This document shows, piece by piece, positions 5,102 through 61,560 of a stretch of DNA of 64,000 nt. The translations under genes were made by a program, and so were the position numbers. A model generated the notes under the pieces. That model did no database searches. It saw only the letters and a list, made by a program, of their open reading frames with translations, and had not been told where the DNA came from. Every line of letters begins with the position of its first letter. Position 1 is the first letter of the stretch. The stretch covers positions 1,707 to 65,706 of the forward strand of contig CAUZIZ010000006.1 in the NCBI GenBank assembly GCA_963579905.1, written 5' to 3'. The stretch is from Acidobacteria bacterium UBA6911 (GTDB taxonomy: Bacteria > Acidobacteriota > UBA6911 > RPQK01 > JAJDTT01).

Positions 5102-5661
5102 CTTTCACTGGACGTATTGAGTGGGCAGTTCAATTGAGGCACAAGGAAGATTGTGCTGCTGTCCGGTCGCTCCTCGAAACCTCAGACATTAGACGAATCG
5201 TTCAAGTTTCAGCTTAGTGCCCCCCAGGAAGCGCTGGCCCCATTCGAGAAAGAAGCCTCAGTGTCCTACGGTAGCATGGGCATCCCTGCCCGTGATGACC
5301 GATCCGTCGAGCCAAGGGCTCGACAATCACGGCCTGGAAGACCGTGCCACGGTTGGGAATCCTGAACCTGGAACCGAATGAAGTTTCAGCTTAGTCCCGC
5401 CCCCGCTGCGCTGCCCCATTCGAGAAAGAAACTTCCGGCTACTGGAGATTTGTGCTGTTGTCCAGCTCTCTCCTCGGAACTTGGCCTCATGTTGCTAACG
5501 GCTCAAGTCGTTCGCGGCTCTGTCGGACTTGACTTCGTAACGCTGGTAGTTCACCCGTTGGCGGCACCTTCGGAGGGCAGGAGACGTGCGACGTTCAGAC
5601 GAATTCTTGGAGTTCAGGTCGGGCTCCTGCTTCGCCGGGGAGGCTCCAACCTCGCGGATTG
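5102..5661. repeat. Intergenic mosaic repeat island A (two H palindromic units and one T unit: H-spacer-H-T)
   Basis: H copies at ~5204-5256 and ~5379-5436 (GAAGTTTCAGCTTAGT...CCCCATTCGAGAAAGAAACTTCC). T unit at ~5492-5577 (TTGCTAACGGCTCAAGTCGTTCGCGGCTCTGTCGGACTTG...GGCACCTTCGGAGG) with the tail GGAGACGTGCGACGTTCAGACGAATTCTT. The island lies between convergent gene ends. Confidence 0.8.
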
Positions 5662-9216: not shown

Positions 9217-9544
9217 TGTGGGCACCCAACCTCAGCAGCAGTTCCGATCCAAAGGGCAGCGATACTACTTCCCTGCCCTTTCTTGTCAGTGCCCCCCCAG
9301 CGGTGCTGCCCCGTTCGAGAAAAGAAACTTCCGGCTACTGGGGATTTGTGCGGCTCTCTCCTCGAAACCTGGGCTCATTTCGCTAACGGCTCAAGTCGTT
9401 CGCGGCTCTGTCGGACTTGGCTTCGTAACGCTGGTAGTTCACCCGTTGGCGGCACCTTCGGAGGACTGGAGACGTGCGACGAATTCTTGAAGTTTCAGCT
9501 TAGTGCAAACAAGTTCTTCCGAACCCGCTCGCATTTCGTTCTCG
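9217..9544. repeat. Mosaic repeat island B (H variant, T unit, partial H; full composite element ~9280-9505, + orientation)
   Basis: T at ~9380-9462 is near-identical to the island A copy. It ends with GAATTCTTGAAGTTTCAGCTTAGTGC, a direct repeat of the H 5' end. Confidence 0.8.
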
Positions 9545-19668: not shown

Positions 19669-20072
19669 CTGGCATTTCACTCCCGACGGCGAGCCCAATC
19701 TGATCGATGCCATCGAACAGGATCGCCCACCATCAACCCTCGGCGATCCAACAGAGCCGCGAACGACTTGAGCCGTTAGCAAAATGAGCCCAGGTTCCGA
19801 GGAGAGAGCCGGACAACTCTTCCCCACGCAGTGGCGCACAAATCCCCAGTAGCCGGAACTTTCTTTCCCGAATGGGGCCAGGGCTTCCTGGGGGCGGGAC
19901 TTACCTGAAACTTCATTGGCAAACGTAGCTTTGGCCTCCAGACCGAAGTATTCCTTCGAGCCTTTGGCTCGGACGGCGGCCTGGAGACCGCCGCCACGGC
20001 CGGGACTCCAAGTTTCCTTCTCGAATGGGGCAGCGCAGCGGGGGGGGCACTAACTTGAAGCTCGGTAGCGGT
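19669..20072. repeat. Mosaic repeat island C (truncated T and two H units, minus orientation)
   Basis: T fragment at 19751-19783 (reverse complement of TTGCTAACGGCTCAAGTCGTTCGCGGCTCTGT). H copies at ~19853-19913 and ~20008-20064. Between convergent genes. Confidence 0.75.

Positions 20073-31635: not shown

Positions 31636-31654
<19 letters not shown>
28799..31654 (+). CDS. Secreted ~950-aa protein with a C-terminal PHP-like metal-dependent phosphoesterase region (DUF3604-like)
   Basis: Signal peptide. C-terminal GDLHRHTDISVDGGGDG and GITDHTDH (HxH) motifs. N-terminal repeats rich in W. Confidence 0.75.
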
Positions 31655-33258
<1,604 letters not shown>

Positions 33259-33720
33259 CCACGAACCTCCATACAGACAATAGTCTGGGAGCCAAGCGAA
33301 TCCTATCAGCTAGCGACGGCCAATCCTATGGGTATGATGCTGCGACCTTCGACGATCAACCCAAGCTGAAACTTCAAGAATACGTCGCACGTCTCCTGTC
33401 CTTCGAAGGTGCACCAACGGGTGAACTACCAGCGTTACGAAGCCAAGTCCGACAGAGCCGCGAACGACTTGAGCCGTTAGCAAAATGAGCCCAGGTTCCG
33501 AGGAGAGAGCCGGACAACTCTTCCCCACGCAGTGACGCACAAATCCCCAGTAGCCGGAAGTTTCTTTCTCGAATGGGGCAGCACCGCTGGGGAGCCACTA
33601 AGCTGAAGCTTCATTGGGCAGGAGATCATCCAAGGGTCGCCAATGACAGAGCCGTGACTGCGAAGGAGCGGTCCCGGCATACGGATGCCGGAAACAACGA
33701 ACCAAACGGACGGTGGCTGA
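33259..33720. repeat. Mosaic repeat island D: complete T+H composite element (minus, ~33362-33612) plus the left arm of an S element (~33620-33720)
   Basis: Reverse complement of H-T-tail. It ends CATTGGGCAGGAGATCATCCAAGGGTCGCCAATGACAGAGCCGTGACTGCGAAGGAGCGGTCCCGGCATACGGATGCCGG. Confidence 0.8.
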
Positions 33721-33808
33721 CTGGACCTCCATTTTCGGCATCTCCCGCAGGAAGGCTCAAGTTGCTCCAACCGATGCCTATAAGCCAGGAGGAGGGAGTT
33801 ATCATCAG

Positions 33809-35440: not shown

Positions 35441-36454
35441 ATGCCAAAGCGACTCGTGATTCGCGGCCCCCGCCAGGCCGAGTTTGAAGAAGTGCCCGTG
35501 CCGGAGTGCACCTCTGATGGAATTCTGGTACGCGCCCGGACTACCGCTATTAGCACGGGAACCGAGTTGAGGGTCTACCGCGGAATTCCGGTGGATCCCG
35601 AGGGACGATTCATTTTTCCCAACCAGCGCCTTGAGTTCCCAATCGAGAATGGCTACTCCATGGTTGGTGATGTGATCCAGGTCGGATCGCGCGTCAGCGA
35701 TCTGGCAAGAGGCGATCGTGTTTTCGTGCCCGAACCTCATAAGCAGGTGGCAGCCTGTCCGGCCATCCAGGCGACACGGCTTCCCGAGGGCCTTCCGGAT
35801 GAGGTAGGACCGTTCCTCCACATCCTGGAGGTGGCTCATATTGCACTACGTCGTGGGCAACCCTCGCCCGGCGAGAATGTGGCCATCTTTGGTGCCGGGC
35901 TGATTGGATTATCCGCCCTGGCATACGCCAAGGCCTTTGGACTGAGAACGGCGGTGGTGGACCTCGACCCGAGTCGGTTGGCAGTTGCGGCGTCCATGGG
36001 AGCCGATTGGACGGGCAGTCCGAAGGATGTCGGTTTTGAGGAGCAGGCAGTAGACTTCTTCGACGGCGACGGAGCCGATCTGGTATTAGAGGCTGCCTCG
36101 ACCTGGGCTGCAATCGAGGCCGGTCTTCGCATCGCACGACCCGAGGCAAGGGTGGTTGTGGTCGCTCGGCATACCGACCAGCCGGCCTTCAGCGCAGTCG
36201 GCTATCCCTACTTGGCCAAGAATCTATCCATTCGCACCTCGTACGGGCATCTGGCCCCGGGGACACGCTGGGACCGGAGACGGTCGCAGGCTCTGACACT
36301 CGATCTACTGGTTCGGGGACGCCTGAACGTTGGCCCCATCATCACTCATCGGTTCGACTGGCAAGAGCTTCCAGACGTCTATCGAAGAATGGATGCCTCA
36401 GCGCCGGAGATGATTGGTGTCGCCATCGACTGGTCCGGAAATAGTGCGCAGTGA
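35441..36454 (+). CDS. Zinc-binding alcohol dehydrogenase (MDR) family oxidoreductase
   Basis: 337 aa with a GAGLIGLSALAYAKAFG Rossmann motif. Confidence 0.85.
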   Translation: MPKRLVIRGPRQAEFEEVPVPECTSDGILVRARTTAISTGTELRVYRGIPVDPEGRFIFPNQRLEFPIENGYSMVGDVIQVGSRVSDLARGDRVFVPEPHKQVAACPAIQATRLPEGLPDEVGPFLHILEVAHIALRRGQPSPGENVAIFGAGLIGLSALAYAKAFGLRTAVVDLDPSRLAVAASMGADWTGSPKDVGFEEQAVDFFDGDGADLVLEAASTWAAIEAGLRIARPEARVVVVARHTDQPAFSAVGYPYLAKNLSIRTSYGHLAPGTRWDRRRSQALTLDLLVRGRLNVGPIITHRFDWQELPDVYRRMDASAPEMIGVAIDWSGNSAQ

Positions 36455-36627
36455 GCAGTAGTGGAGTGAGCAGTGGCCTGTACCGGAAACAGCTGCAGCC
36501 AACAGTCGGGAGCGACTCGACTTTGTTTACATTATGAGTCCACGTTCCGAGGAGCGACCGGTCACAGCACAATCTCCCCCAGTATTCAGTCAAGGTTTCT
36601 CCCTGAACGATTGAGTGCGGCTGGTGG

Positions 36628-39701: not shown

Positions 39702-41735
39702 TCAGCGGGCCCTGTCCTCACCCATTAGATGGTCCCAGTGCCGTCGGGCCTGGGTCAGGATCTGAGGCAGGTCTTCACTCAGCACATAGCCCTCAGCTGC
39801 CAGTCCTAGAGCGGCGTTGGTCACCAGGCCGACATACTCGGCGCGGCTCTGGTAGCGTGACGCGATTGAAGCACGCGGATCCCCTAGCCGCTTCCGCTCC
39901 TGCTCGGTCCGCGGAAAGGGTATGTAGCAGCCTTGAAAGCTCGACAGTCTGTTCGTTGGTCCAGAGGAGTCGTTGAAGAGATTCCATCCCGTGTACGTCG
40001 CCAACGGCACTGCCAAGTCCGGGAGGCGGATCCCGTCGATTTCGTTTCCGTCTTCGTCGACTGCCGGGACCAGAATTGGGAAGGCCCCTCCGACCTGGGG
40101 CGGTTGCAGCGTCACGATCCCCTCGCCTCGAAACCTCGGGCCGAAGTCGATCCGGTAGGCCTTGTGGATACGTTCGGGGAAGCTGATGCCCGGTAGTTGG
40201 GGGAAGGTCAAGTTCTCAAACCGGAGCAGCGTCTTTCGATCCAGGCGGGGATAGCGGCTGGCAGGCGGTGCTGTGTCTGACACGACCCAGTTGTCCAGAG
40301 CCCTCAAGAGCGCTCTCATCGACCAACGGAAATCCATTGGATTGCTGGGCTCTTGCCCCCTAGAGATAGCGGGTGGAAATGGTCCTGGGCCGTGTTGGCT
40401 TCCTGCAAAGTGATACATGCGGACGTTGTCCAGCATGGGTACGTCGCGCTGCCCGTCGATGGTCGTATGGGTTAGTGAGGCAGCTCGACCGAAGTACTCA
40501 TAGGAAGAATTTGTGTAGAAGATTTTGGGTCGGAATCGAGCTTCGGGAGAATGTGTGAGCAATCCATCCGTGATCCCGGTTTCGGGATCGGTCTGCTCCA
40601 CATCGGTGAAGGGGAAGATGTCGGTGGGGTAGAAGAAGTTTGCGTAGGGTTGAGCATCCCTCGAAGGCTGTGCAAAACGATGATTGAAGCTACCTCGACC
40701 AGCACCCGCCACGTGGGGGATGATGCCGTCGAAGGCGGGTCTCCCCTCCTCATCCTGGTTGAGACCGTGGTAGAGGAACGTTCTCAGAAAGCGTCCGCTC
40801 TGGGAGCTGCCAAACCCGAATGCCCGAGCGATAGTCCCTCGGAACATGGATAAGGCCTCGGAGCTACGGTTCTTCAAGTGGGAAATCATATCTCTGACAG
40901 CAACCATCCCCAGCCCGACGACTGGGGGATTCTCGGAGACGTAGACGACTTCGTAGATCTTGCCCGGCTCGAATCCACCCTGGAGAGAAACGTAGGCAAC
41001 ATCGGGCCTCAGCTGGCCATTTCGGAAGCGTGCGAACTTCCATTGTGAGCGCGGTATCTCGTGGCGTGCGGCCTCCACGTCGTCCCTGACAGTCAGCACG
41101 TTCTCCGAAGCCGCAGGATCGGCTGTGGGGTAGGGGATGTGGTTTCGATCGGAGAGGATATGATCCCGGGCTGTTTTCTTCACGACGAAATCACATCGCA
41201 CCAGACCTCGAATCGGTCGATTCCCATGGCGAGCGACTGGGGGATAGAGTCGAAGCCTACCCTTGATCGGTGGGGTGTCGAACTGCCAGCCCAGCCAGAG
41301 CACGGTGTATCCATGACGCATCAGGAATCCGTCTCCGAGCTCCGCTGCATTCTCAAAGTTAGAGCTCCTGCTGGCCCGATTGAAGTAGAGCAACAGAGCC
41401 TTTCCGCCGCGATTCGAGACTTCGAAGAACACAGCCCGGTTACCTCGCCGAATCTGTTTCGGCTTCAGTAGGAAAAAATCAGCCGAGAACTCGACCTCAC
41501 CGTCCGGATTCGTGGGGGCGTTATCGATATCCGTGATGCGTCGATTAGCTGGATGGGCCGGATCGATTGCATAGAGGATTCTGCCGCTGATCTTCTCATA
41601 GGGACCCGCTAGCCCGAACGACTTCCCGCCGATCAGATCCTCACGAGAACTGATCTCGAAACCGGTGACCCGGGCGAAGAGAGGGGAAGAGATCAAGAAG
41701 AACACCAGCCAGGAAGAAACGGATCGTAACCACAT
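39702..41735 (-). CDS. Secreted hypothetical protein, possibly alpha/beta-hydrolase-like
   Basis: 677 aa with a signal peptide and a GSSQSG elbow-like motif. No stops. Confidence 0.7.
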   Translation of the reverse strand: MWLRSVSSWLVFFLISSPLFARVTGFEISSREDLIGGKSFGLAGPYEKISGRILYAIDPAHPANRRITDIDNAPTNPDGEVEFSADFFLLKPKQIRRGNRAVFFEVSNRGGKALLLYFNRASRSSNFENAAELGDGFLMRHGYTVLWLGWQFDTPPIKGRLRLYPPVARHGNRPIRGLVRCDFVVKKTARDHILSDRNHIPYPTADPAASENVLTVRDDVEAARHEIPRSQWKFARFRNGQLRPDVAYVSLQGGFEPGKIYEVVYVSENPPVVGLGMVAVRDMISHLKNRSSEALSMFRGTIARAFGFGSSQSGRFLRTFLYHGLNQDEEGRPAFDGIIPHVAGAGRGSFNHRFAQPSRDAQPYANFFYPTDIFPFTDVEQTDPETGITDGLLTHSPEARFRPKIFYTNSSYEYFGRAASLTHTTIDGQRDVPMLDNVRMYHFAGSQHGPGPFPPAISRGQEPSNPMDFRWSMRALLRALDNWVVSDTAPPASRYPRLDRKTLLRFENLTFPQLPGISFPERIHKAYRIDFGPRFRGEGIVTLQPPQVGGAFPILVPAVDEDGNEIDGIRLPDLAVPLATYTGWNLFNDSSGPTNRLSSFQGCYIPFPRTEQERKRLGDPRASIASRYQSRAEYVGLVTNAALGLAAEGYVLSEDLPQILTQARRHWDHLMGEDRAR

Positions 41736-41770
41736 CTGCTAATTAGAGCGCCGGAATGATGGGAGAATCA

Positions 41771-41938
41771 AGTGGTGGCGTGAGCAGTGGTGGAGTAGTG
41801 TAGTGGTGCAGTAGTGTAGTGAGCAATGATCAGTCGATCGGTGCCCAGACAACAGCTACGGCTTGCAACTAATTCCTACGGATCACTCCACTACTCCACC
41901 ACTCCACTACTGCTCACTCCACTACTGCACCACTACAC
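41771..41938 (+). repeat. Heptad-arm inverted-repeat element (copy 1): AGTGAGC/AGTAGTG-type arms flanking a conserved ~45-nt core
   Basis: Arm1 GTGAGCAGTGGTGGAGTAGTGTAGTGGTGCAGTAGTGTAGTGAGCA. Core GATCAGTCGATCGGTGCCCAGACAACAGCTACGGCTTGCAAC. Arm2 CACTCCACTACTCCACCACTCCACTACTGCTCACTCCACTACTGCACCAC is roughly complementary to arm1. It fills the divergent intergenic region and ends at the cytochrome RBS. Confidence 0.75.
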
Positions 41939-41954
41939 CAAGGAGTATCAGTCC

Positions 41955-42602
41955 GTGATTCGCATCCCTATCCCTGCCGTGCTCTTGGTGCTTTTCTTCT
42001 CGGCCATCCTCTTGCGTGGCGAGCAGAAATTCTCACATCCCGTTCATTTGAAAAGGGGAGACCTTGAATGTAACGACTGCCATGGATCTGTTTCCGATAG
42101 CAAGGTTTCAGGCGACGATAACTTCCCCCAGGTCGAGACCTGTGTTCAGTGTCATGATGGCACCCGAGCGGTGGCGCTCGACCCCGCTGAATTCCGCTGG
42201 AAGCCGGTCGAAAGGACCTTCCGCTTCGACCACCAGTTCCACCTAAGGCTGGGAAATCTGGCACCCCTGCTGGCAAGCGCTATTGATTCGGGGAGGTACC
42301 TGGGACGGGTGGGCGGTATCCGAAAACATTTGGCGACGGAGAACCAGTGTGAAGCGTGCCATAGGGGCTTGGCCGAGAGAGACGACCACGGCATGCCCCA
42401 GATGTCCGACTGTCTCGTCTGCCATTCAGAGATCGACAACCCGTTCAGCTGTGAGACCTGCCATTTAGAGGGCATTCAGCTTCGCCCTGAGAATCACACC
42501 ATGGAATTCTTCGACGGCCACGCCTCGAAGGAGTTCGAGTACGATAAGACGACCTGTCTTCCCTGCCACGGGACCAATTTTTCTTGTCGAGGGTGCCACT
42601 AG
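41955..42602 (+). CDS. Multiheme c-type cytochrome (7 CxxCH motifs)
   Basis: AAGGAG RBS, GTG start, signal/anchor. Heme motifs CNDCH, CVQCH, CEACH, CLVCH, CETCH, CLPCH and CRGCH within ~215 aa. Confidence 0.85.
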   Translation: MIRIPIPAVLLVLFFSAILLRGEQKFSHPVHLKRGDLECNDCHGSVSDSKVSGDDNFPQVETCVQCHDGTRAVALDPAEFRWKPVERTFRFDHQFHLRLGNLAPLLASAIDSGRYLGRVGGIRKHLATENQCEACHRGLAERDDHGMPQMSDCLVCHSEIDNPFSCETCHLEGIQLRPENHTMEFFDGHASKEFEYDKTTCLPCHGTNFSCRGCH

Positions 42603-45578: not shown

Positions 45579-46297
45579 AGTCTCCTCGGTGGAAGCTAGC
45601 CTAAAACTTGAACGATTCGTCGGAACGTCGGCACGTCTGGACGTCGCACGTCTCTTCTCCCGGGAAAGTGCGGCGAACGGTTCCGACGGAAGCTTCGAAT
45701 GGCGAGGTGATCATGAAGAATCGCCAGATGTCAGAGCCGTGCCCTTCAGGGTTCGGCCCCTGATCGGGGGCCGAACCTGGCAGCTCCGCCTTGGAAGTTT
45801 CCTCCTGAATGATCCAGCTGGGGCGGGACTAAGCTGAAACTTCATTTGGTAGGAGATCATCCAAGAGTCGCCAATGACAGAGCCGTGACTGCGAAGGAGC
45901 GGTCCCGGTATACCGGTGCCGGAAACAACCGACCAAACAGACGGTGACCGATCACATCCCCTTTTGCGGCATGTCCCGATCGGTGATCGGGACCGCTCCT
46001 TTGCAGTCACGGCTCCGTCATTGGCGGTAGCGACAATCACGGCAGACGTAACCGAAGTTTCGTTCTCGAATGGGGCAGCACCGCTGGGGCGGGACTGCCC
46101 TGAAACTTGAGCAGTGAGCAGCGCCGCAAACCGGTGAACTAGCAGTATTACGAAACCAAGTCCAACAGAGCCGCGAACGACTTGAGCCGCTGGCAATTTG
46201 AAGCCAGCTTTCGTGGAAAGAGCCGGACGACAGCAAAATCTCTTCCGCTCTACCGGCTGACATTTCCGCCTTCCAGTTTCCCTTCGCCACACTGAAC
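45579..46297. repeat. Mosaic repeat island E: tail fragment, H, complete S element, H, T, and a diverged copy
   Basis: H(-) at 45794-45843, S at 45871-46024, H(-) at 46050-46108, T(-) at 46128-46196. Between convergent genes. Confidence 0.8.
45871..46024. mobile_element. S element: MITE-like ~154-bp unit with ~37-bp terminal inverted repeats and two internal hairpins
   Basis: Left arm CCAATGACAGAGCCGTGACTGCGAAGGAGCGGTCCCGG. Right arm CGGGACCGCTCCTTTGCAGTCACGGCTCCGTCATTGG, 34/36 complementary. Internal hairpins CCGGTATACCGG and GTCCCGATC-GGT-GATCGGGAC. No ORF. Confidence 0.6.
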
Positions 46298-49732: not shown

Positions 49733-50722
49733 ATGAGTATCGATATCGAAGCAGTTCACAGAAAGATCGAACAGGAAAGTGTGTTCGTTGCAACCCTGAC
49801 TGCAGAAGTTGGAAAGGTCATCGTCGGTCAAGACTACATGGTGCAGCGGCTGCTCATTGGACTCTTGTCGAATGGACATGTTCTTCTGGAGGGAGTTCCG
49901 GGGCTGGCCAAGACGCTCACCGTGCGCACTCTCTCCGAGGCCATCCAGACCCGGTTTCAGCGTATCCAGTTTACCCCTGATCTGCTTCCAGCCGACCTAC
50001 TGGGGACCCTGATCTACGATCAGAAGGAGGGGACCTTCAAGACCAAGAAGGGTCCGATTTTTTCCAACCTGATCCTGGCAGACGAGATCAATCGAGCTCC
50101 TGCCAAGGTGCAGTCTGCACTCCTGGAAGCAATGCAGGAGCGGACCGTTACCCTTGGTGAGACCACCTTCCCTCTAGACGATCCTTTTCTGGTTCTGGCC
50201 ACCCAGAATCCCATTGAGCAAGAGGGTACCTACCCCCTACCCGAGGCCCAGATCGACCGTTTCATGCTCAAGCTCGTGGTGGGATATCCGTCCCAGGAGG
50301 AAGAGTTGGAGATCGTGCGTCGGATGACGGGAGGAGCGACACCTGAGCCCGACGCCGTGGTCAAGCCGGAGGACATCATCAGGGCAAGGAGTACGGTTGA
50401 GGAAGTCTACATCGATCCCAAGGTGCAGCAATACATCATCGATATCGTTTTCGCCACGCGACAACCCAAAGACTACGGCTTGGCGGAGCTAGAAGACCTG
50501 GTCTCCTATGGCGCATCCCCGCGCGCCTCCATCTTTCTGGCTAAGGCGTCCAAGGCACACGCTTTCTTGAAACGCCGCGGCTATGTGACGCCAGAGGACG
50601 TACGAGCCATCGGTCTGGACATCTTGCGACACCGAGTCATCATAACCTACGAAGCCGAGGCGGAAGAAGTGACGTCCGAGGAGGTAGTGCAGAAGGTATT
50701 GGACACGGTCGAAGTGCCGTAG
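49733..50722 (+). CDS. MoxR-family AAA+ ATPase
   Basis: Walker A GVPGLAKT, Walker B LILADEINRAP, MoxR signature. 329 aa. Confidence 0.9.
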   Translation: MSIDIEAVHRKIEQESVFVATLTAEVGKVIVGQDYMVQRLLIGLLSNGHVLLEGVPGLAKTLTVRTLSEAIQTRFQRIQFTPDLLPADLLGTLIYDQKEGTFKTKKGPIFSNLILADEINRAPAKVQSALLEAMQERTVTLGETTFPLDDPFLVLATQNPIEQEGTYPLPEAQIDRFMLKLVVGYPSQEEELEIVRRMTGGATPEPDAVVKPEDIIRARSTVEEVYIDPKVQQYIIDIVFATRQPKDYGLAELEDLVSYGASPRASIFLAKASKAHAFLKRRGYVTPEDVRAIGLDILRHRVIITYEAEAEEVTSEEVVQKVLDTVEVP

Positions 50723-50872
50723 TAATCGAGTAGTGGAGTAGTGAGCAGTGAGCAGTGAGCAGTGAGCAGTAAGCAGTACGCAGTAAGCAGTGATCAGGTC
50801 TGTCGGTGCTCAGATAACAGCCACAGCTTGCAACCCACTGCTCACTTCACTACTCCTCACTGCTCACTGAAG
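50723..50872 (+). repeat. Heptad-arm inverted-repeat element (copy 2) between moxR and the DUF58 gene
   Basis: (AGTGAGC)4-like arm AGTGAGCAGTGAGCAGTGAGCAGTGAGCAGTAAGCAGTACGCAGTAAGCAGTGATCAG. Core GTCTGTCGGTGCTCAGATAACAGCCACAGCTTGCAAC is ~80% identical to the core of copy 1. Arm2 CACTGCTCACTTCACTACTCCTCACTGCTCACTG. Confidence 0.75.
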
Positions 50873-50875
50873 CCC

Positions 50876-51754
50876 ATGATACCCACAGAGATCCTTAAGA
50901 AAGTACGTCGCCTTGAGATCACGACCCGGGGGCTGGTTAATGAGGTCTTCTCGGGTGAGTACCACTCTGTCTTCAAGGGTCGCGGAATGAACTTTTCGGA
51001 AGTGCGGGAGTATCAGTTTGGTGATGACGTCAGGAGTATCGACTGGAATGTCACAGCCCGGATGGGGCATCCCTTCGTCAAGGTGTTCGAGGAGGAAAGA
51101 GAGCTCACGGTAATGTTGCTCGTCGACGCCAGCTCCTCCGGGGAGTTTGGTTCGGGCGAGAGAATGAAGGGCGAAATTGCAGTCGAGATCTGTGCCCTCC
51201 TGGGATTTTCAGCCATTAAGAACAATGACAAGGTCGGGCTTATCATCTTCACCGATCAAGTTGAGAAGTTCGTGCCTCCCCGCAAGGGACGGGCTCACGT
51301 TCTTCGGGTCCTTAGAGAGCTCTTGTACTTCCAGCCAGGACACAAATCGACCGACATCGGAATGGCGCTGGAATACTTGACCCACGTGATTAGACGAAGA
51401 AGCGTGGTTTTTCTTGTCTCTGACTTCTTGTCCAAGAGTTTCGAACGGGCACTTCGAGTCGCCAGCCGCAGGCATGACCTGGTAGCCATTCAAGTCAGTG
51501 ACCCTCGGGAGTTGGAACTTCCCAACGTGGGATACATCGAGTTTGAGGATGCCGAGACGGGTGAGCGCCTCATCATGGATACGAGGGATACCCAAGTGCG
51601 CGAAGACTTCGCCGCCAGGGTACGCGAGGAGCTTGCGAAGCGAGAGAAATTCTTCAAATCGATTGGTGTCGACAGTATCAACATAAGCACCGATCTGCCC
51701 TACGTTCAAACTCTGATCCATTTCTTTCGTCTCAGAGTACGGAGGTTCCGATGA
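50876..51754 (+). CDS. DUF58 (vWA-like) protein, MoxR partner
   Basis: DUF58 sequence VFKGRGMNFSEVREYQFGDDVRSIDWNVTAR. Start set at the ATG after the repeat element. Confidence 0.85.
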   Translation: MIPTEILKKVRRLEITTRGLVNEVFSGEYHSVFKGRGMNFSEVREYQFGDDVRSIDWNVTARMGHPFVKVFEEERELTVMLLVDASSSGEFGSGERMKGEIAVEICALLGFSAIKNNDKVGLIIFTDQVEKFVPPRKGRAHVLRVLRELLYFQPGHKSTDIGMALEYLTHVIRRRSVVFLVSDFLSKSFERALRVASRRHDLVAIQVSDPRELELPNVGYIEFEDAETGERLIMDTRDTQVREDFAARVREELAKREKFFKSIGVDSINISTDLPYVQTLIHFFRLRVRRFR

Positions 51755-57587: not shown

Positions 57588-58447
57588 GTCAAGATCGAGC
57601 AGTGAGCATGGGGTGTCCGAATACGGCAACGAGCAGGCTGTTGCGGGCTCATGGTGGTCGGGTTTTGAGGGCTCCAGCTAGTTGGTTGGTCCGAGCTGGC
57701 CTACAAGGGCTGGTACTGGTAATCCTGCTGCTGGGAACGGCTCTGGGGCAGGACCAGCATCAGCTATTCGGGCAGGCGAACCGTTTCTACGAGGAGGGAG
57801 CTTTTGATCGGGCCCTCAGTGGCTACCGGGAAATCGTGGCGCAGGACTATGAGAGCGGACCCCTCTACTTCAATATCGGGAACTGCTATTACAAGTTAGG
57901 CCAGATCGGTGAGGCGGTGCTCTTCTACGAGCGTGCTCGTCGATTGATCCCGGGCGACGAGGATCTAGAGGCCAATCTGGCCCTGGCCAATCTGAGGGTG
58001 GTTGACAAGATTCCGGAGCTTCCCGAGTTCTGGCCAATCAAGGTCGCTAATGCTCTCAGCAACTTTCTTCCGAGACCGGTGCTGATCGGTGTCACCCTTT
58101 CTCTCTACTTTATCTTCATCGCTTCGGTCATTCTGAGGACTTTGGCCCGAAGAAGTGCTGTGCGGTCGGTGGGTGGCAGATCAATGATTCTGAGCGGAGC
58201 TTTGCTGCTTCTATTCGGTCTGTTTCTGGTGGCCCAGATCCGGCAGGCGCAAGAGCACAACCACTCAGTTATCATGGTTCCAACAGTCCACGTGATGAGT
58301 GCTCCGGGAGCCGAGGGAGTGGAGGTCTTCACCCTACACGAAGGTACCAGAGTCAGGATCGATCAGACTTCGGGGCTGTGGGTTGAGATTGTCCTGTCCG
58401 ACGGAAACGTAGGGTGGCTCAAAGCTGAGACGTTGGAAGTCATTTGA
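57578..58447 (+). CDS. batE: BatE-like TPR + C-terminal SH3b protein
   Basis: TPR at the N-terminus, TM helices, and an SH3-like end (VEIVLSDGNVGWLKAETLEVI). Confidence 0.75.
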   Translation: MPLSQDRAVSMGCPNTATSRLLRAHGGRVLRAPASWLVRAGLQGLVLVILLLGTALGQDQHQLFGQANRFYEEGAFDRALSGYREIVAQDYESGPLYFNIGNCYYKLGQIGEAVLFYERARRLIPGDEDLEANLALANLRVVDKIPELPEFWPIKVANALSNFLPRPVLIGVTLSLYFIFIASVILRTLARRSAVRSVGGRSMILSGALLLLFGLFLVAQIRQAQEHNHSVIMVPTVHVMSAPGAEGVEVFTLHEGTRVRIDQTSGLWVEIVLSDGNVGWLKAETLEVI

Positions 58448-59030
58448 GTATCTTGATAGTGGATGGACGCACAATTCGCGCTCTCCCGACCCTGAAATTT
58501 CATGGGATAGGAAATCATGCAGAAGCAGCCGTTTGACAGAGCCGTGACTGCGAAGGAGTGGTACCGGCATACCGATGCCGGAAGGCAGTGACCCGTGGAC
58601 CTTCTTCCTATGGACTCACCACATGTCCCGATCGATGATCGGGTCCCGCTCCCTCACGGTCACGGCTCTGTATGCACGCCGAAGCAACCGCGCGGCGGGA
58701 TCTTAACCCTTCAAAGCTCCAAGGGCTTTTGCGACACGCTCTATTGTGGATCATTCGAAGTTTTCTTATCGAATTGGGCCAGCGTTTCCTGGAGGCGGGA
58801 CTAACCTGAACCTTCAACCACGAGGAAGCGAAGCAACATTCGCTAGTTGACAGAGCCGTGACTGTCAGGGAGCGGGGCCCGACGGGGCCCATACCCCCCG
58901 ACGCTTCCAGGTTGCAGGGGGTTGCTAGCAATGATCATGGCAGAGACGGTACAAGTTTCTTTCTTAAATGGGGCCAGTACTTCCTGGGGGCCTTACTAAC
59001 CTGAAATTTCGACGTGAATGATCCGAAACG
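58448..59030. repeat. Mosaic repeat island F: S copy (58535-58671), H(-) 58757-58815, diverged S-like 58849-58949, H(-) 58951-59011
   Basis: Same modules as islands D and E. The arms of the S copy pair with two T-G (G-U) wobble positions. Confidence 0.8.
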
Positions 59031-61482: not shown

Positions 61483-61560
61483 CGTGATCTTCGTAGGGTG
61501 GGCACTCCTGCCCGTCGTTTTAAACGACGGGCAGGAGTGCCCACCCTACGAAGATCACGA
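61483..61560. repeat. Perfect 78-bp palindrome (39-bp arms)
   Basis: CGTGATCTTCGTAGGGTGGGCACTCCTGCCCGTCGTTTT|AAAACGACGGGCAGGAGTGCCCACCCTACGAAGATCACG. The two arms are exact reverse complements of each other. Confidence 0.9.

Follow-up and report, generated by a model that had tools for sequence, protein, structure and literature searches.

The window, i.e., the whole 64-kb stretch of DNA that was analysed, contains two elements of one architecture, here called A and B. Each is built from two opposed arrays of 7/8-nt units (AGTGAGC/AGTAGTG/AGTGGTG on one side, their complements on the other) around a common core of ~60 nt. With somewhat less than even confidence, we read these elements as heptamer (7-nt) tandem repeats of the kind known from intergenic DNA of bacteria and phages, in a variant that forms hairpins and probably acts on mRNA.

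A preliminary description of this DNA had named two full heptad-armed copies with a shared core, and we find both, at 41771-41938 (A) and 50729-50869 (B). The 32-nt core pattern occurs exactly twice in the window, where 0 occurrences are expected. The large stem-loops proposed at that stage are borne out as well: both copies are self-contained long inverted repeats, and their predicted folds are long hairpins of -82.8 kcal/mol (z = -4.7) for element A and -66.2 kcal/mol (z = -3.5) for element B, in which RBS and start codon are unpaired. TRF reports period-7/8/16 arrays in element A and, in left arm B, an array of period 7 with 8.9 copies. All features are listed in Table 1.

Table 1. Parts of the heptad-armed elements and the genes next to them (positions in the window).
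Feature	Position	Strand	Remarks
Site C, left-arm-type heptad array only	36443-36476	+	overlaps ADH stop
Abhydrolase_10 gene	39702..41735	-	divergent from cytochrome gene
Element A, left arm	41771-41826	.	7/8-nt units AGTGGTG / AGTAGTG(T) / AGTGAGC
Element A, core (TGATCAG...GGATCA)	41827-41885	+	central block 41839-41869
Element A, most conserved 19-mer AACAGCTACGGCTTGCAAC	41851-41869		within central block of core A
Element A, right arm	41884-41938	.	complementary units CACTCCA / CTACTCC / CTGCTCA
Seven-CxxCH cytochrome (Cytochrome_C7) gene	41955..42602	+	downstream of element A
moxR (AAA_3) gene	49733..50722	+	upstream of element B
Element B, left arm	50729-50793	.	(AGTGAGC)4, then AGTAAGC/AGTACGC units
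Element B, core	50791-50835 (start approximate)	+	
Element B, central 31-nt block of core CGGTGCTCAGATAACAGCCACAGCTTGCAAC	50804-50834		
Element B, right arm	50836-50869	.	CACTGCT / CACTTCA / CTACTCC units
DUF58 gene	50876..51754	+	downstream of element B

Both elements reach from a stop codon or a divergent promoter to the next RBS or start codon. Element A begins 35 nt upstream of the Abhydrolase_10 start codon; its right arm ends 1 nt before the RBS AAGGAG (41940-41945) and 16 nt before the GTG start (41955) of the cytochrome gene, with the RBS in between. Left arm B begins 6 nt past the moxR stop codon (50720-50722), and right arm B ends 6 nt ahead of the DUF58 ATG (50876). This is in good agreement with the earlier remark that the copies abut the downstream RBS or start. 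Given these positions, the elements would sit in the cytochrome leader and in the moxR-DUF58 intercistronic RNA.

The reverse complementarity ascribed to the arms holds only in part. The arrays are indeed opposed, but both repeat one heptad consensus, each in its own orientation, and are not element-specific mirror copies. When right arms are reverse-complemented and compared with left arms, 9-mer sharing amounts to 0.17 within elements and 0.12 between elements, a signal too weak to speak for element-specific co-variation of the arms. Since the complementarity comes mostly from the common consensus, the hairpin may simply follow from having two motif arrays that face each other.

Several other functions were considered for the elements. 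Coding was rejected: core A and core B do not share a reading frame with respect to the genes that follow them, and every frame of perfect left-arm heptads has a TGA. Attenuation, one of the roles first proposed, or termination is not supported because a U-tract is missing, and zero terminator-like sites were found in A or B. The promoter scan, which covers the sigma70-like type, detected none within either element. No Rfam model matched the elements at the gathering score, and the sub-threshold generic miRNA-hairpin models that appear at permissive thresholds were dismissed as noise. Mimicry of Shine-Dalgarno or anti-Shine-Dalgarno sequences by the arms was rejected, too: in pairing with the 3' tail of 16S, AGUGAGC has no advantage over permuted heptads (45th percentile). 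The variant AGUGAUC reaches the top 3% in a post hoc comparison.

Site C had been described as a third, arm-only fragment following the ADH stop. The left arm is real (36443-36476), but it overlaps the stop: the ADH stop codon (TGA 36452-36454) is part of the array itself, and from ~36500 onwards we find a truncated copy of another repeat family that occupies intergenic DNA in this genome. A short AACAGCTGCAGC match by site C may or may not be a core remnant. The genome is rich in other mosaic intergenic repeats. The short runs once listed at 46109-46124 and 57597-57610 do not exceed chance; they are two-unit matches with 2 mismatches, of which ~7 are expected, and the run at 57.6 kb falls in coding sequence.

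For comparison, we used the syntenic loci of seven related lineages, in which sites A and B range from absence of the element through short and long versions to inversion, half-deletion and decay. Compared with a strain of ~99% identity (L007), the window has only two multi-nucleotide indels in 12.6 kb. They measure 8 nt and 15 nt, and both affect element A, the former as a unit indel in the left arm, the latter in the right arm. Element B shows three indels of 14-16 nt among same-species contigs, while 45 nt of its core are identical; left arm B differs from that of the same-species contig L014 by a 14-nt indel. In the P0013 group the unit GCTCACT is present two, three or five times, and CTGTTCA occurs four times in L012 versus five times in L013. 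The arms are VNTRs, and their unit-sized length change is consistent with replication slippage.

The core is found in both orientations. At the orthologous site A of L008-L010 and L018-L022 it is reverse-complemented; the L008 core, with inner arm units included, aligns to the reverse complement of window core A with a score of 75, against a null maximum of 20. Likewise, the site-B core is inverted in L026-L033. At both sites the breakpoints fall inside the arms, and the innermost arm units are flipped along with the core. Though inverted, the 31-nt block of core B is identical at 31/31 positions in L026-L033, where the neutral reference, i.e., 4-fold sites of moxR, is 65% identical (P ~ 1.6e-6 for such a block). 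In the 19-mer, 17/19 columns are invariant in the six copies compared. Thus, a core block of 19-31 nt is far better conserved than neutral sites. Every species group carries one orientation only (~8 contigs of the window species, 8 of the L008/L018 group and 8 of the P0013 group, from many samples), and in this contig-level comparison both orientations are found only between species. The uniform orientation in all contigs of a group implies that flips occur on speciation timescales.

An element resembles its counterpart at the same site in another species more than A and B of one genome resemble each other. The element has been vertically inherited at sites A and B since before the split of these species, and the core, first noticed in two copies, recurs at the orthologous sites of other species. 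Losses are seen alongside: core B is half-deleted in L037, other lineages have the element lost, halved or degraded, and in the outgroup L039 it is absent at all three sites (A, B and C). Where relatives have no core at site B, their spacers cannot be aligned to the window spacer. As several lineages live without the element, any function must be dispensable. At site A, comparison with relatives without the element reveals that it stands in place of ~90 nt rather than being inserted. The ancestral sigma70-like promoter region, with TTGACT-17-TAACAT, was replaced in this way, so that a promoter must now lie in or near element A. An origin from that region was considered, and no similarity between it and element A was found.

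The stems of relatives are stronger than those of shuffled sequences in L026 (z = -12) and L012 (z = -6), while the short-armed L008 version is no better than shuffles (z = -1.1). A sense-strand G.U advantage gave a mixed result in the window lineage and is not seen in 14 phage hairpins (p = 0.5). Without such an advantage, the pairing looks DNA-symmetric and not selected in one RNA strand.

Searches for further core copies were run on collections that exclude the source genome itself. The core pattern has four chance matches only in GTDB representative genomes, in JGI metagenomes nothing but the same locus in a sister strain, and in IMG/VR chance matches in coding sequence only. An nhmmer profile of the core found no copies outside sites A and B in ~0.7 Mb of related loci, and a protein-word query from the open-frame translations of the core returned nothing among called proteins.

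The arms, by contrast with the core, have counterparts far beyond this locus. In many phage contigs of IMG/VR, an arrangement [stop]-(AGTGAGC)n-loop-(GCTCACT)n-[RBS-ATG] fills the intercistronic gaps, also those of structural operons. Three successive AGTGAGC units occur in 45 IMG/VR stretches versus 5 and 2 for two composition-matched control heptads, i.e., 9-22 times more commonly. The loci comprise 14 L-loop-R pairs versus 2 R-loop-L pairs. In most cases the stop codon lies 0-12 nt before the left arm and the ATG 14-27 nt after the right arm, and the distance of IMG/VR arrays to the start codon peaks at 10-29 nt. One contig, L042, is a genuine phage in which heptad hairpins recur at many gene junctions. 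Elements within one phage have unrelated cores. As for cultured relatives of a heptad-bearing phage, no portal match exceeds 46% identity. Right arms of phage elements mix TCACTGA, TTACTGA and TAACTGA units; judged by these unit sequences, the AGTGAGC type grades into the published start-codon-proximal heptamer TAACTGA.

Among the long simple-sequence repeats of bacteria, heptamers are the most over-represented and are clustered at gene starts. To our knowledge, no mechanism has been established for them. A match to a known minisatellite, raised together with the preliminary description, is given to some extent: the arms fit the intergenic heptamer repeats adjoining start codons, but unit and inverted layout differ. 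TAACTGA direct repeats were described just upstream of start codons in Beggiatoaceae, Cyanobacteria and Bacteroidetes (MacGregor 2015, PMC4679880), with variable copy number, unknown function and a proposed post-transcriptional role (PMC4679880). Like our elements, they are tandem intergenic 7-nt units with a forward array ending a few nucleotides before the start codon, and a NACTG core is common to TAACTGA, TCACTGA and TCACTGC. This core is all that TAACTGA has in common with AGTGAGC/GCTCACT and variants. Furthermore, TAACTGA repeats are almost always direct, with 1 inverted set in 170 (PMC4679880) and 2 L-R pairs among 131 arrays at the TAACTGA loci of IMG/VR, whereas the opposed arrays of our elements make up a long hairpin that encloses a conserved core. 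The forward TAACTGA unit also has stop codons, while GCTCACT, the array on the start-codon side here, has none.

Other heptamer families show similar traits. The cyanobacterial STRR, the GGGNATC repeats of Xanthomonas and Nostoc (Rehm 2015, PMC4692102) and further Nostoc repeats (bioRxiv 10.1101/2022.06.06.494920) are heptameric and intergenic, occupy the same site in related genomes near promoters or start codons, and vary in length and sequence in close relatives. For Xanthomonas, such differences of intergenic heptamer patterns among close relatives were reported and the heptamer excess was ascribed to polymerase slippage (PMC4692102); in Nostoc, an effect on reporter expression was found for heptamer repeats close to start codons (bioRxiv 10.1101/2022.06.06.494920). 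These families differ from the elements in their unit sequences, some of which form G4, and they have no inverted arrays, conserved core or reported inversion.

REP sequences in operons are classically tied to mRNA stabilisation. The related REPINs/BIMEs (PMC3116915) resemble the elements as intergenic inverted-repeat doublets with a spacer and a predicted hairpin in ssDNA or mRNA. However, REPINs have highly conserved 16-mer arms, a less conserved spacer, hundreds of copies and an association with the RAYT transposase (PMC3116915), whereas the elements have hypervariable tandem-repeat arms, a conserved core and an apparently low copy number, and no RAYT (Y1 transposase) was seen in the window. 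One faint Y1_Tnp match occurs in a distant locus, L030. Invertons such as fimS and those of Bacteroides share with the elements a segment flanked by inverted repeats beside a gene start that exists in both orientations. In our case the flips are found only between species, a stretch of ~60 nt is invertible, long imperfect tandem arrays take the place of the inverted repeats, and neither recombinase nor promoter was detected.

Phage T7 and T3 mRNAs carry intercistronic RNase III processing hairpins. Like the elements, these are long stem-loops between cistrons, repeated at many phage gene junctions (cf. L042); unlike them, T7 sites are neither built from tandem repeats nor hypervariable, and RNase III cleavage is putative in our case. 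In plastid non-coding DNA, small hairpin-loop (flip-flop) inversions flanked by inverted repeats are recurrent and need no recombinase. There, too, related lineages carry the loop of the hairpin in opposite orientation, and the breakpoints fall in the stem. Still, this is a different biological system, and the plastid loops usually have few to tens of nucleotides and are not conserved.

Implementing these facts, we propose that unit slippage and inverted-repeat recombination would shape the element. The inversions would arise by recombination or template switching between the inverted arms and not by a dedicated switch. As it is placed within transcription units, in the cytochrome leader and in the gap between moxR and DUF58, the element would be transcribed as a stem-loop of 35-100 bp. 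Stems of ~35-100 bp between co-directional genes exceed the RNase III minimum of ~20 bp, transcription being taken from the operon context, and by their length would be expected substrates of this enzyme. By analogy with the intercistronic hairpins of phage T7, processed stems would uncouple or differentially stabilise the flanking cistrons, and the effect would be tuned by array length. That the core is usable in either orientation argues against a function of its RNA sequence.

A more far-reaching interpretation seems unlikely to us. It regards the heptad-armed hairpins as an undescribed, functionally selected intercistronic/leader class of PVC-type marine bacteria and many uncultured phages, in which the arrays would be a length-tunable zipper for a trans-acting factor (RNase III or a heptad-binding protein) and the core a ligand site, its orientation switched by arm-mediated inversion as a slow genetic switch. 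We grant somewhat better, though still low, chances to the opposite view that the elements are non-functional (neutral or selfish) palindromic minisatellite DNA with incidental effects on expression. Slippage and inverted duplication would then spread the arrays, template switching would homogenise the arms and flip the loop, and palindrome instability would delete the element. This is in line with arms behaving as VNTRs, with loss, half-deletion or decay in several lineages, with DNA-symmetric pairing that has no G.U bias, with a genome full of other mosaic intergenic repeats, and with polymerase slippage being blamed for the heptamer excess (PMC4692102). Against it, the 31/31 block needs constraint when neutral identity is 65%, the strong 14:2 polarity of L-loop-R and, in compact phage genomes, a position fixed between stop codon and RBS are unexpected for junk, and the 9- to 22-fold excess of AGTGAGC over control heptads must be accounted for. 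Alternatively, the heptad arrays could be operator-like DNA arrays for a heptad-binding protein that bracket a regulatory core, the hairpin potential being a side effect. The omega repressor of pSM19035, for instance, binds WATCACW heptads in direct or inverted orientation. A 7-nt periodicity, a common consensus instead of element-specific mirror copies, the convergent arrangement around a conserved or AT-rich core, and a heptad recurring across many phage genomes as if it were a recognised motif would all suit such operators, and a core that is independent of orientation fits binding of double-stranded DNA. Nevertheless, unit sequence and number are hypervariable even within species, operators are not expected in the intercistronic gaps of structural operons in which the arrays are located, and no candidate binding protein was identified, which leaves this reading decidedly doubtful.

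Two mobile or switching devices are disfavoured, namely a fast phase switch and a MITE. We give little credit to a mini-inverton, a programmed phase switch with the arms as inverted repeats and the core as an orientation-dependent signal (promoter, operator or RNA motif) for the adjacent gene, even though the conserved core is flipped at two independent loci, the element lies directly upstream of gene starts, and at site A it has taken the place of the ancestral sigma70-like promoter. Orientation is uniform across the contigs of each species group, the invertible part has merely ~60 nt, half of the core is deleted in some lineages, site B lies inside an operon, the elements hold no sigma70-like promoter, and by Pfam no recombinase or transposase is encoded among the 30 ORFs of the window. 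Least of all do we expect a MITE with heptad terminal inverted repeats, as had been suggested for this DNA at first, or a REPIN-like non-autonomous element mobilised in trans. Such an element would explain the inverted arrays at the ends, presence and absence at orthologous sites, two or three sites within 15 kb, and it could draw on the transposases that are abundant in relatives. Yet no direct repeat flanks the elements as a target-site duplication, element A is a ~90-nt replacement, variable arms with a conserved core are the reverse of the REPIN pattern (PMC3116915), orthologous copies are closer than paralogous ones, elements in one phage have unrelated cores, and the window encodes no transposase. 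Further core copies are also missing in the ~0.7 Mb of related loci, in JGI data apart from the same locus, in GTDB representatives and among called proteins.

Returning to hairpin-forming heptamer repeats as the preferred reading, this locus is a tractable comparative series. It shows array evolution by unit slippage and arm-mediated loop inversion, constraint on part of the enclosed core, and a hairpin architecture between stop codon and RBS that is also widespread among phages. Should the hairpins serve as signals for processing or stability, operons of environmental bacteria and their phages would have a level of regulation that is tunable and hypermutable. In practical terms, the elements break short-read assemblies and cause false N-terminal extensions by gene callers. 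The long ORFs 41826-42602 and 50762-51754 were rejected as gene-caller over-extensions, the former of the cytochrome gene and the latter of DUF58, which gene callers sometimes start inside element B, at GTG 50762. The Logan contig L006 breaks within left arm B. As side observations on the source organism, Tara Oceans metatranscriptomes contain the species, and membership in the PVC superphylum is suggested by the PVC-type marker protein TIGR02604, which scored above its own cutoff.

The heptad-armed feature is real, and it has more structure than a reading of the sequence alone could reveal. Elements A and B, its two full copies, bear out the sequence account of the preliminary description: TRF resolves period-7/8/16 arrays in the arms, and the 32-nt pattern shared by the cores occurs twice against 0 expected. 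Element A separates two divergent genes, while in element B only 6 nt lie between the moxR stop codon and the left arm, and another 6 nt between the right arm and the DUF58 ATG. Fold prediction gives a single long hairpin for each region (A, -82.8 kcal/mol, z -4.7; B, -66.2 kcal/mol, z -3.5), with RBS and start codon unpaired in both. A third, arm-only fragment had been proposed at the end of the ADH gene (site C). The left-arm array there is genuine, but the DNA after it is a truncated copy of a different repeat family that is abundant in the genome. The short heptad runs reported at 46.1 and 57.6 kb show no excess over chance. The elements also disturb annotation and assembly, since gene callers push ORFs into them, with false N-terminal extensions of 38-43 aa, and the Logan contig L006 breaks off within heptads.

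Features in the window and, where a locus is named, in related contigs
Feature	Position	Strand	Remarks
Element A	41771-41938		between divergent Abhydrolase_10 and cytochrome genes
Left arm of A	41771-41826		units AGTGGTG, AGTAGTG, AGTGAGC
Core of A	41827-41885		TGATCAG at one end, GGATCA at the other
Right arm of A	41884-41938		RBS AAGGAG begins one base after arm end
Abhydrolase_10 gene	39702-41735	minus	left neighbour of A
Seven-CxxCH cytochrome gene	41955 (GTG start)		right neighbour of A
Conserved block	41736-41770		left of A
Element B	50729-50869		occupies whole moxR-DUF58 gap
DUF58 gene	50876 (ATG)
Site C array	36443-36476		left arm; provides ADH stop codon
Over-called ORFs	50762-51754; 41826-42602; L008 1413-3563		DUF58; cytochrome; abhydrolase
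IS1595-type insertion	L034 11200-11655		also in L035, L036
Phage hairpins (examples)	L042 1456-1661, 4516-4625, 8721-8800, 11883-11975
Heptad satellite	L050 100-500		400 nt
Segment missing from L007	31846-33649		~1.8 kb
PEPCK_ATP gene	31636-33258	minus
Repeat cluster	33363-33650
Mosaic repeat families	5200-5600, 9280-9530, 19715-20063, 33363-33750, 45634-46238, 58534-59010	both
Members of one mosaic family	36500-36600, 46129-46231		first is site C tail
Perfect palindrome	61483-61559		38+38 nt, 1-nt spacer

Metagenomic contigs matching the window come from ENA, Logan, JGI and one Tara Oceans sample. A core scan of the GTDB representative genomes, which do not include the source genome and its relatives, gave chance matches only, and the sole return from JGI metagenomes was the same locus in the ~99% identical strain L007. 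Syntenic 20-kb loci from seven lineages, found via MoxR homologues at 89-99% identity, served for comparison; their identity to the window at moxR 4-fold sites ranges from 0.98 down to 0.65.

State of sites A and B in the syntenic loci
Loci	Site A	Site B
Window species (window, L005, L007, L014, L015, L017, L205, L206)	window orientation (seen in window, L007, L205, L206)	window orientation (seen in window, L005, L014, L015, L017)
L008-L010, L018-L025	same core reverse-complemented, short arms (covered in L008-L010, L018-L022 only)	32-nt spacer, two heptads
L012/L013	absent	long heptad arms, core badly diverged
L034-L036	absent	long heptad arms, core badly diverged (weak minus-strand match), IS1595-fragment insertion
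L037/L038	absent	window orientation, right half of core deleted
L026-L033	not covered	inverted core, 100-nt arms
L011	absent	177 nt, unrelated
L039/L040 (outgroup)	absent	absent

The reversed site-A core scores 75 against a null maximum of 20. Element-less lineages carry at site A ~90 nt with TTGACT-17-TAACAT or TATGAT in place of the element, which is a replacement of sequence and not an insertion; a derivation of the core from this ancestral promoter region was rejected. The site C array is absent from the outgroup. To the left of element A, 35-37 nt are conserved in all lineages; their minus strand reads TTGATT-17-TCTAAT, 7 nt short of the abhydrolase ATG, and might serve as the promoter of a leaderless mRNA, a call the promoter scan does not make. 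L034-L036 carry, between heptad element and DUF58 start codon, a ~450-nt insertion that encodes a DDE_Tnp_IS1595 fragment and is bounded by the terminal inverted repeats GGGGTATCCATTTAACCGG / CCGGTTAAATGGATACCCC. One long-read contig (ena:ERZ28763718:ctg124605) holds the whole ~15-kb moxR-bat region twice, at ~0.57 and ~1.56 Mb (L026 and L027), each copy adjoining genes for IS66-family transposase and DruA; either a large duplication or an assembly artefact would account for the repetition.

The arms are VNTRs, as close relatives differ by unit-type indels and copy number. The 12.6-kb alignment of the window with L007 contains just two multi-base indels, of 8 and 15 nt, both in the arms of element A, and element B varies within the window species by three indels of 14-16 nt, with 45 nt of core identical. 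GCTCACT is present two, three or five times in one species group, CTGTTCA four or five times in another; the length variation is of slippage type. At site A the innermost arm units are inverted along with the core, which places the breakpoints inside the arms, and the core inversion was probably arm-mediated. All contigs of a given species group share one orientation, so inversion is probably rare and not a fast switch.

The alignments argue strongly that part of the core is under constraint. Its central 31-nt block, CGGTGCTCAGATAACAGCCACAGCTTGCAAC, is identical at 31/31 positions between the window and the inverted copy of the P0013 group (L026-L033) at a neutral identity of only 65% (P ~ 1.6e-6), and the 19-mer AACAGCYACRGCTTGCAAC has 17 of 19 columns invariant in all six copies. 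On either side of the block, divergence is close to the neutral rate, and in several lineages the core has decayed or been deleted. Same-site copies of different species are closer to each other than element A is to element B in the window, which points to vertical inheritance and not to recent transposition. By this evidence the element was inherited at fixed sites and lost repeatedly.

Neither a MITE, REPIN, inverton or terminator nor a known RNA was adopted as its identity. Rfam yielded no family match, scans of elements A and B detected no sigma70-like promoter and no intrinsic terminator, and no conserved reading frame was found in them. With no terminator found, the earlier suggestion of attenuation is not supported. 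That of a MITE is disfavoured by the replacement at site A, by the lack of a TSD and of any transposase gene in the 64-kb window, and by the finding of no further core copies in ~0.7 Mb of related loci or by protein-word search. The window also encodes no recombinase. As Shine-Dalgarno or anti-Shine-Dalgarno mimics, the arms do no better than permuted heptads.

Similar hairpins occur in phage contigs. Three perfect AGTGAGC units are found in 45 IMG/VR stretches (GC 0.46-0.73), compared with 5 and 2 for two composition-matched control heptads and 107 for the published TAACTGA heptamer. Multiple arrays, with both strands represented, occur in many of these contigs. Opposed arrays at most 300 nt apart show the order left arm, loop, right arm (L-loop-R) in 14 cases and the opposite order in 2, with loops of 10-155 nt. 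In at least 11 of 15 cases examined the element lies between co-directional genes; the upstream stop codon is 0-12 nt before the L arm, and the ATG of a long ORF follows 14-27 nt past the R arm with an RBS between. Of 15 elements inspected in IMG/VR contigs, 12 have a loop that is A-rich on the sense strand. L042 (IMGVR_UViG_3300033405_000065), by its terminase, portal and connector genes a genuine phage, bears heptad-armed hairpins at almost all structural-gene junctions, their loops being themselves AAAGGCA/AAAAGCA heptads. In L050 (IMGVR_UViG_3300006524_000082) the same family of heptads forms a far longer array, a satellite of GCTCACT/GTTCACT/GACCTCT units with higher-order repeats.

TAACTGA direct repeats have been described in Beggiatoaceae, Cyanobacteria and Bacteroidetes, where they closely precede start codons (PMC4679880), and the mixture of TCACTGA, TTACTGA and TAACTGA units within phage R arms links the AGTGAGC arrays to them. 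In contrast to those direct repeats, AGTGAGC-type arrays are opposed and hairpin-forming; with only 2 pairs among 131 TAACTGA arrays in IMG/VR, the hairpin organisation is specific to the AGTGAGC type. Heptamers are in excess among bacterial simple-sequence repeats, their intergenic patterns differing among close relatives (PMC4692102), and in Nostoc heptamer repeats near start codons altered reporter expression (bioRxiv 10.1101/2022.06.06.494920). In the literature searched, tandem AGTGAGC does not appear in a bacterial context. The element is best classed among these known, unexplained heptamer intergenic repeats, as a new kind that forms hairpins.

Element anatomy, stop-to-RBS placement and L-loop-R polarity are established. 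With element B located within the moxR-batA operon and the phage copies within structural operons, the elements are probably co-transcribed with their neighbours. An mRNA stem of 35-100 bp would be expected to serve as an RNase III substrate or to stabilise 3' ends, in the manner of T7 mRNAs and REP-containing operons. For this reason the most likely role would be a post-transcriptional uncoupling or tuning of adjacent cistrons, in which heptad number would act as the tuning parameter. However, the 14 phage hairpins fold as stably in sense as in antisense (the comparison is mixed in the window lineage), and arm complementarity stems largely from the common heptad consensus. A role at the DNA level, through a heptad-reading protein on the arrays or a cruciform, is therefore possible, as is no role at all; conservation of the core block in either orientation suits recognition of double-stranded DNA better than an RNA motif.

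The other mosaic intergenic repeat families of the window have copies of up to 107 nt that are 96% identical, and their modules combine differently from site to site, BIME-like. The segment missing from L007 spans most of the PEPCK_ATP gene and part of a repeat cluster; its flanks are directly joined there with a 6-nt overlap, either because that strain has deleted pckA or because the assembly was joined at repeats. One protein passes the NCBIfam cutoff as a PVC-type heme-binding protein, and the genes present would fit a marine bacterium of the PVC superphylum. Upstream of an ECF sigma-factor operon is a 325-nt region that contains the perfect palindrome.
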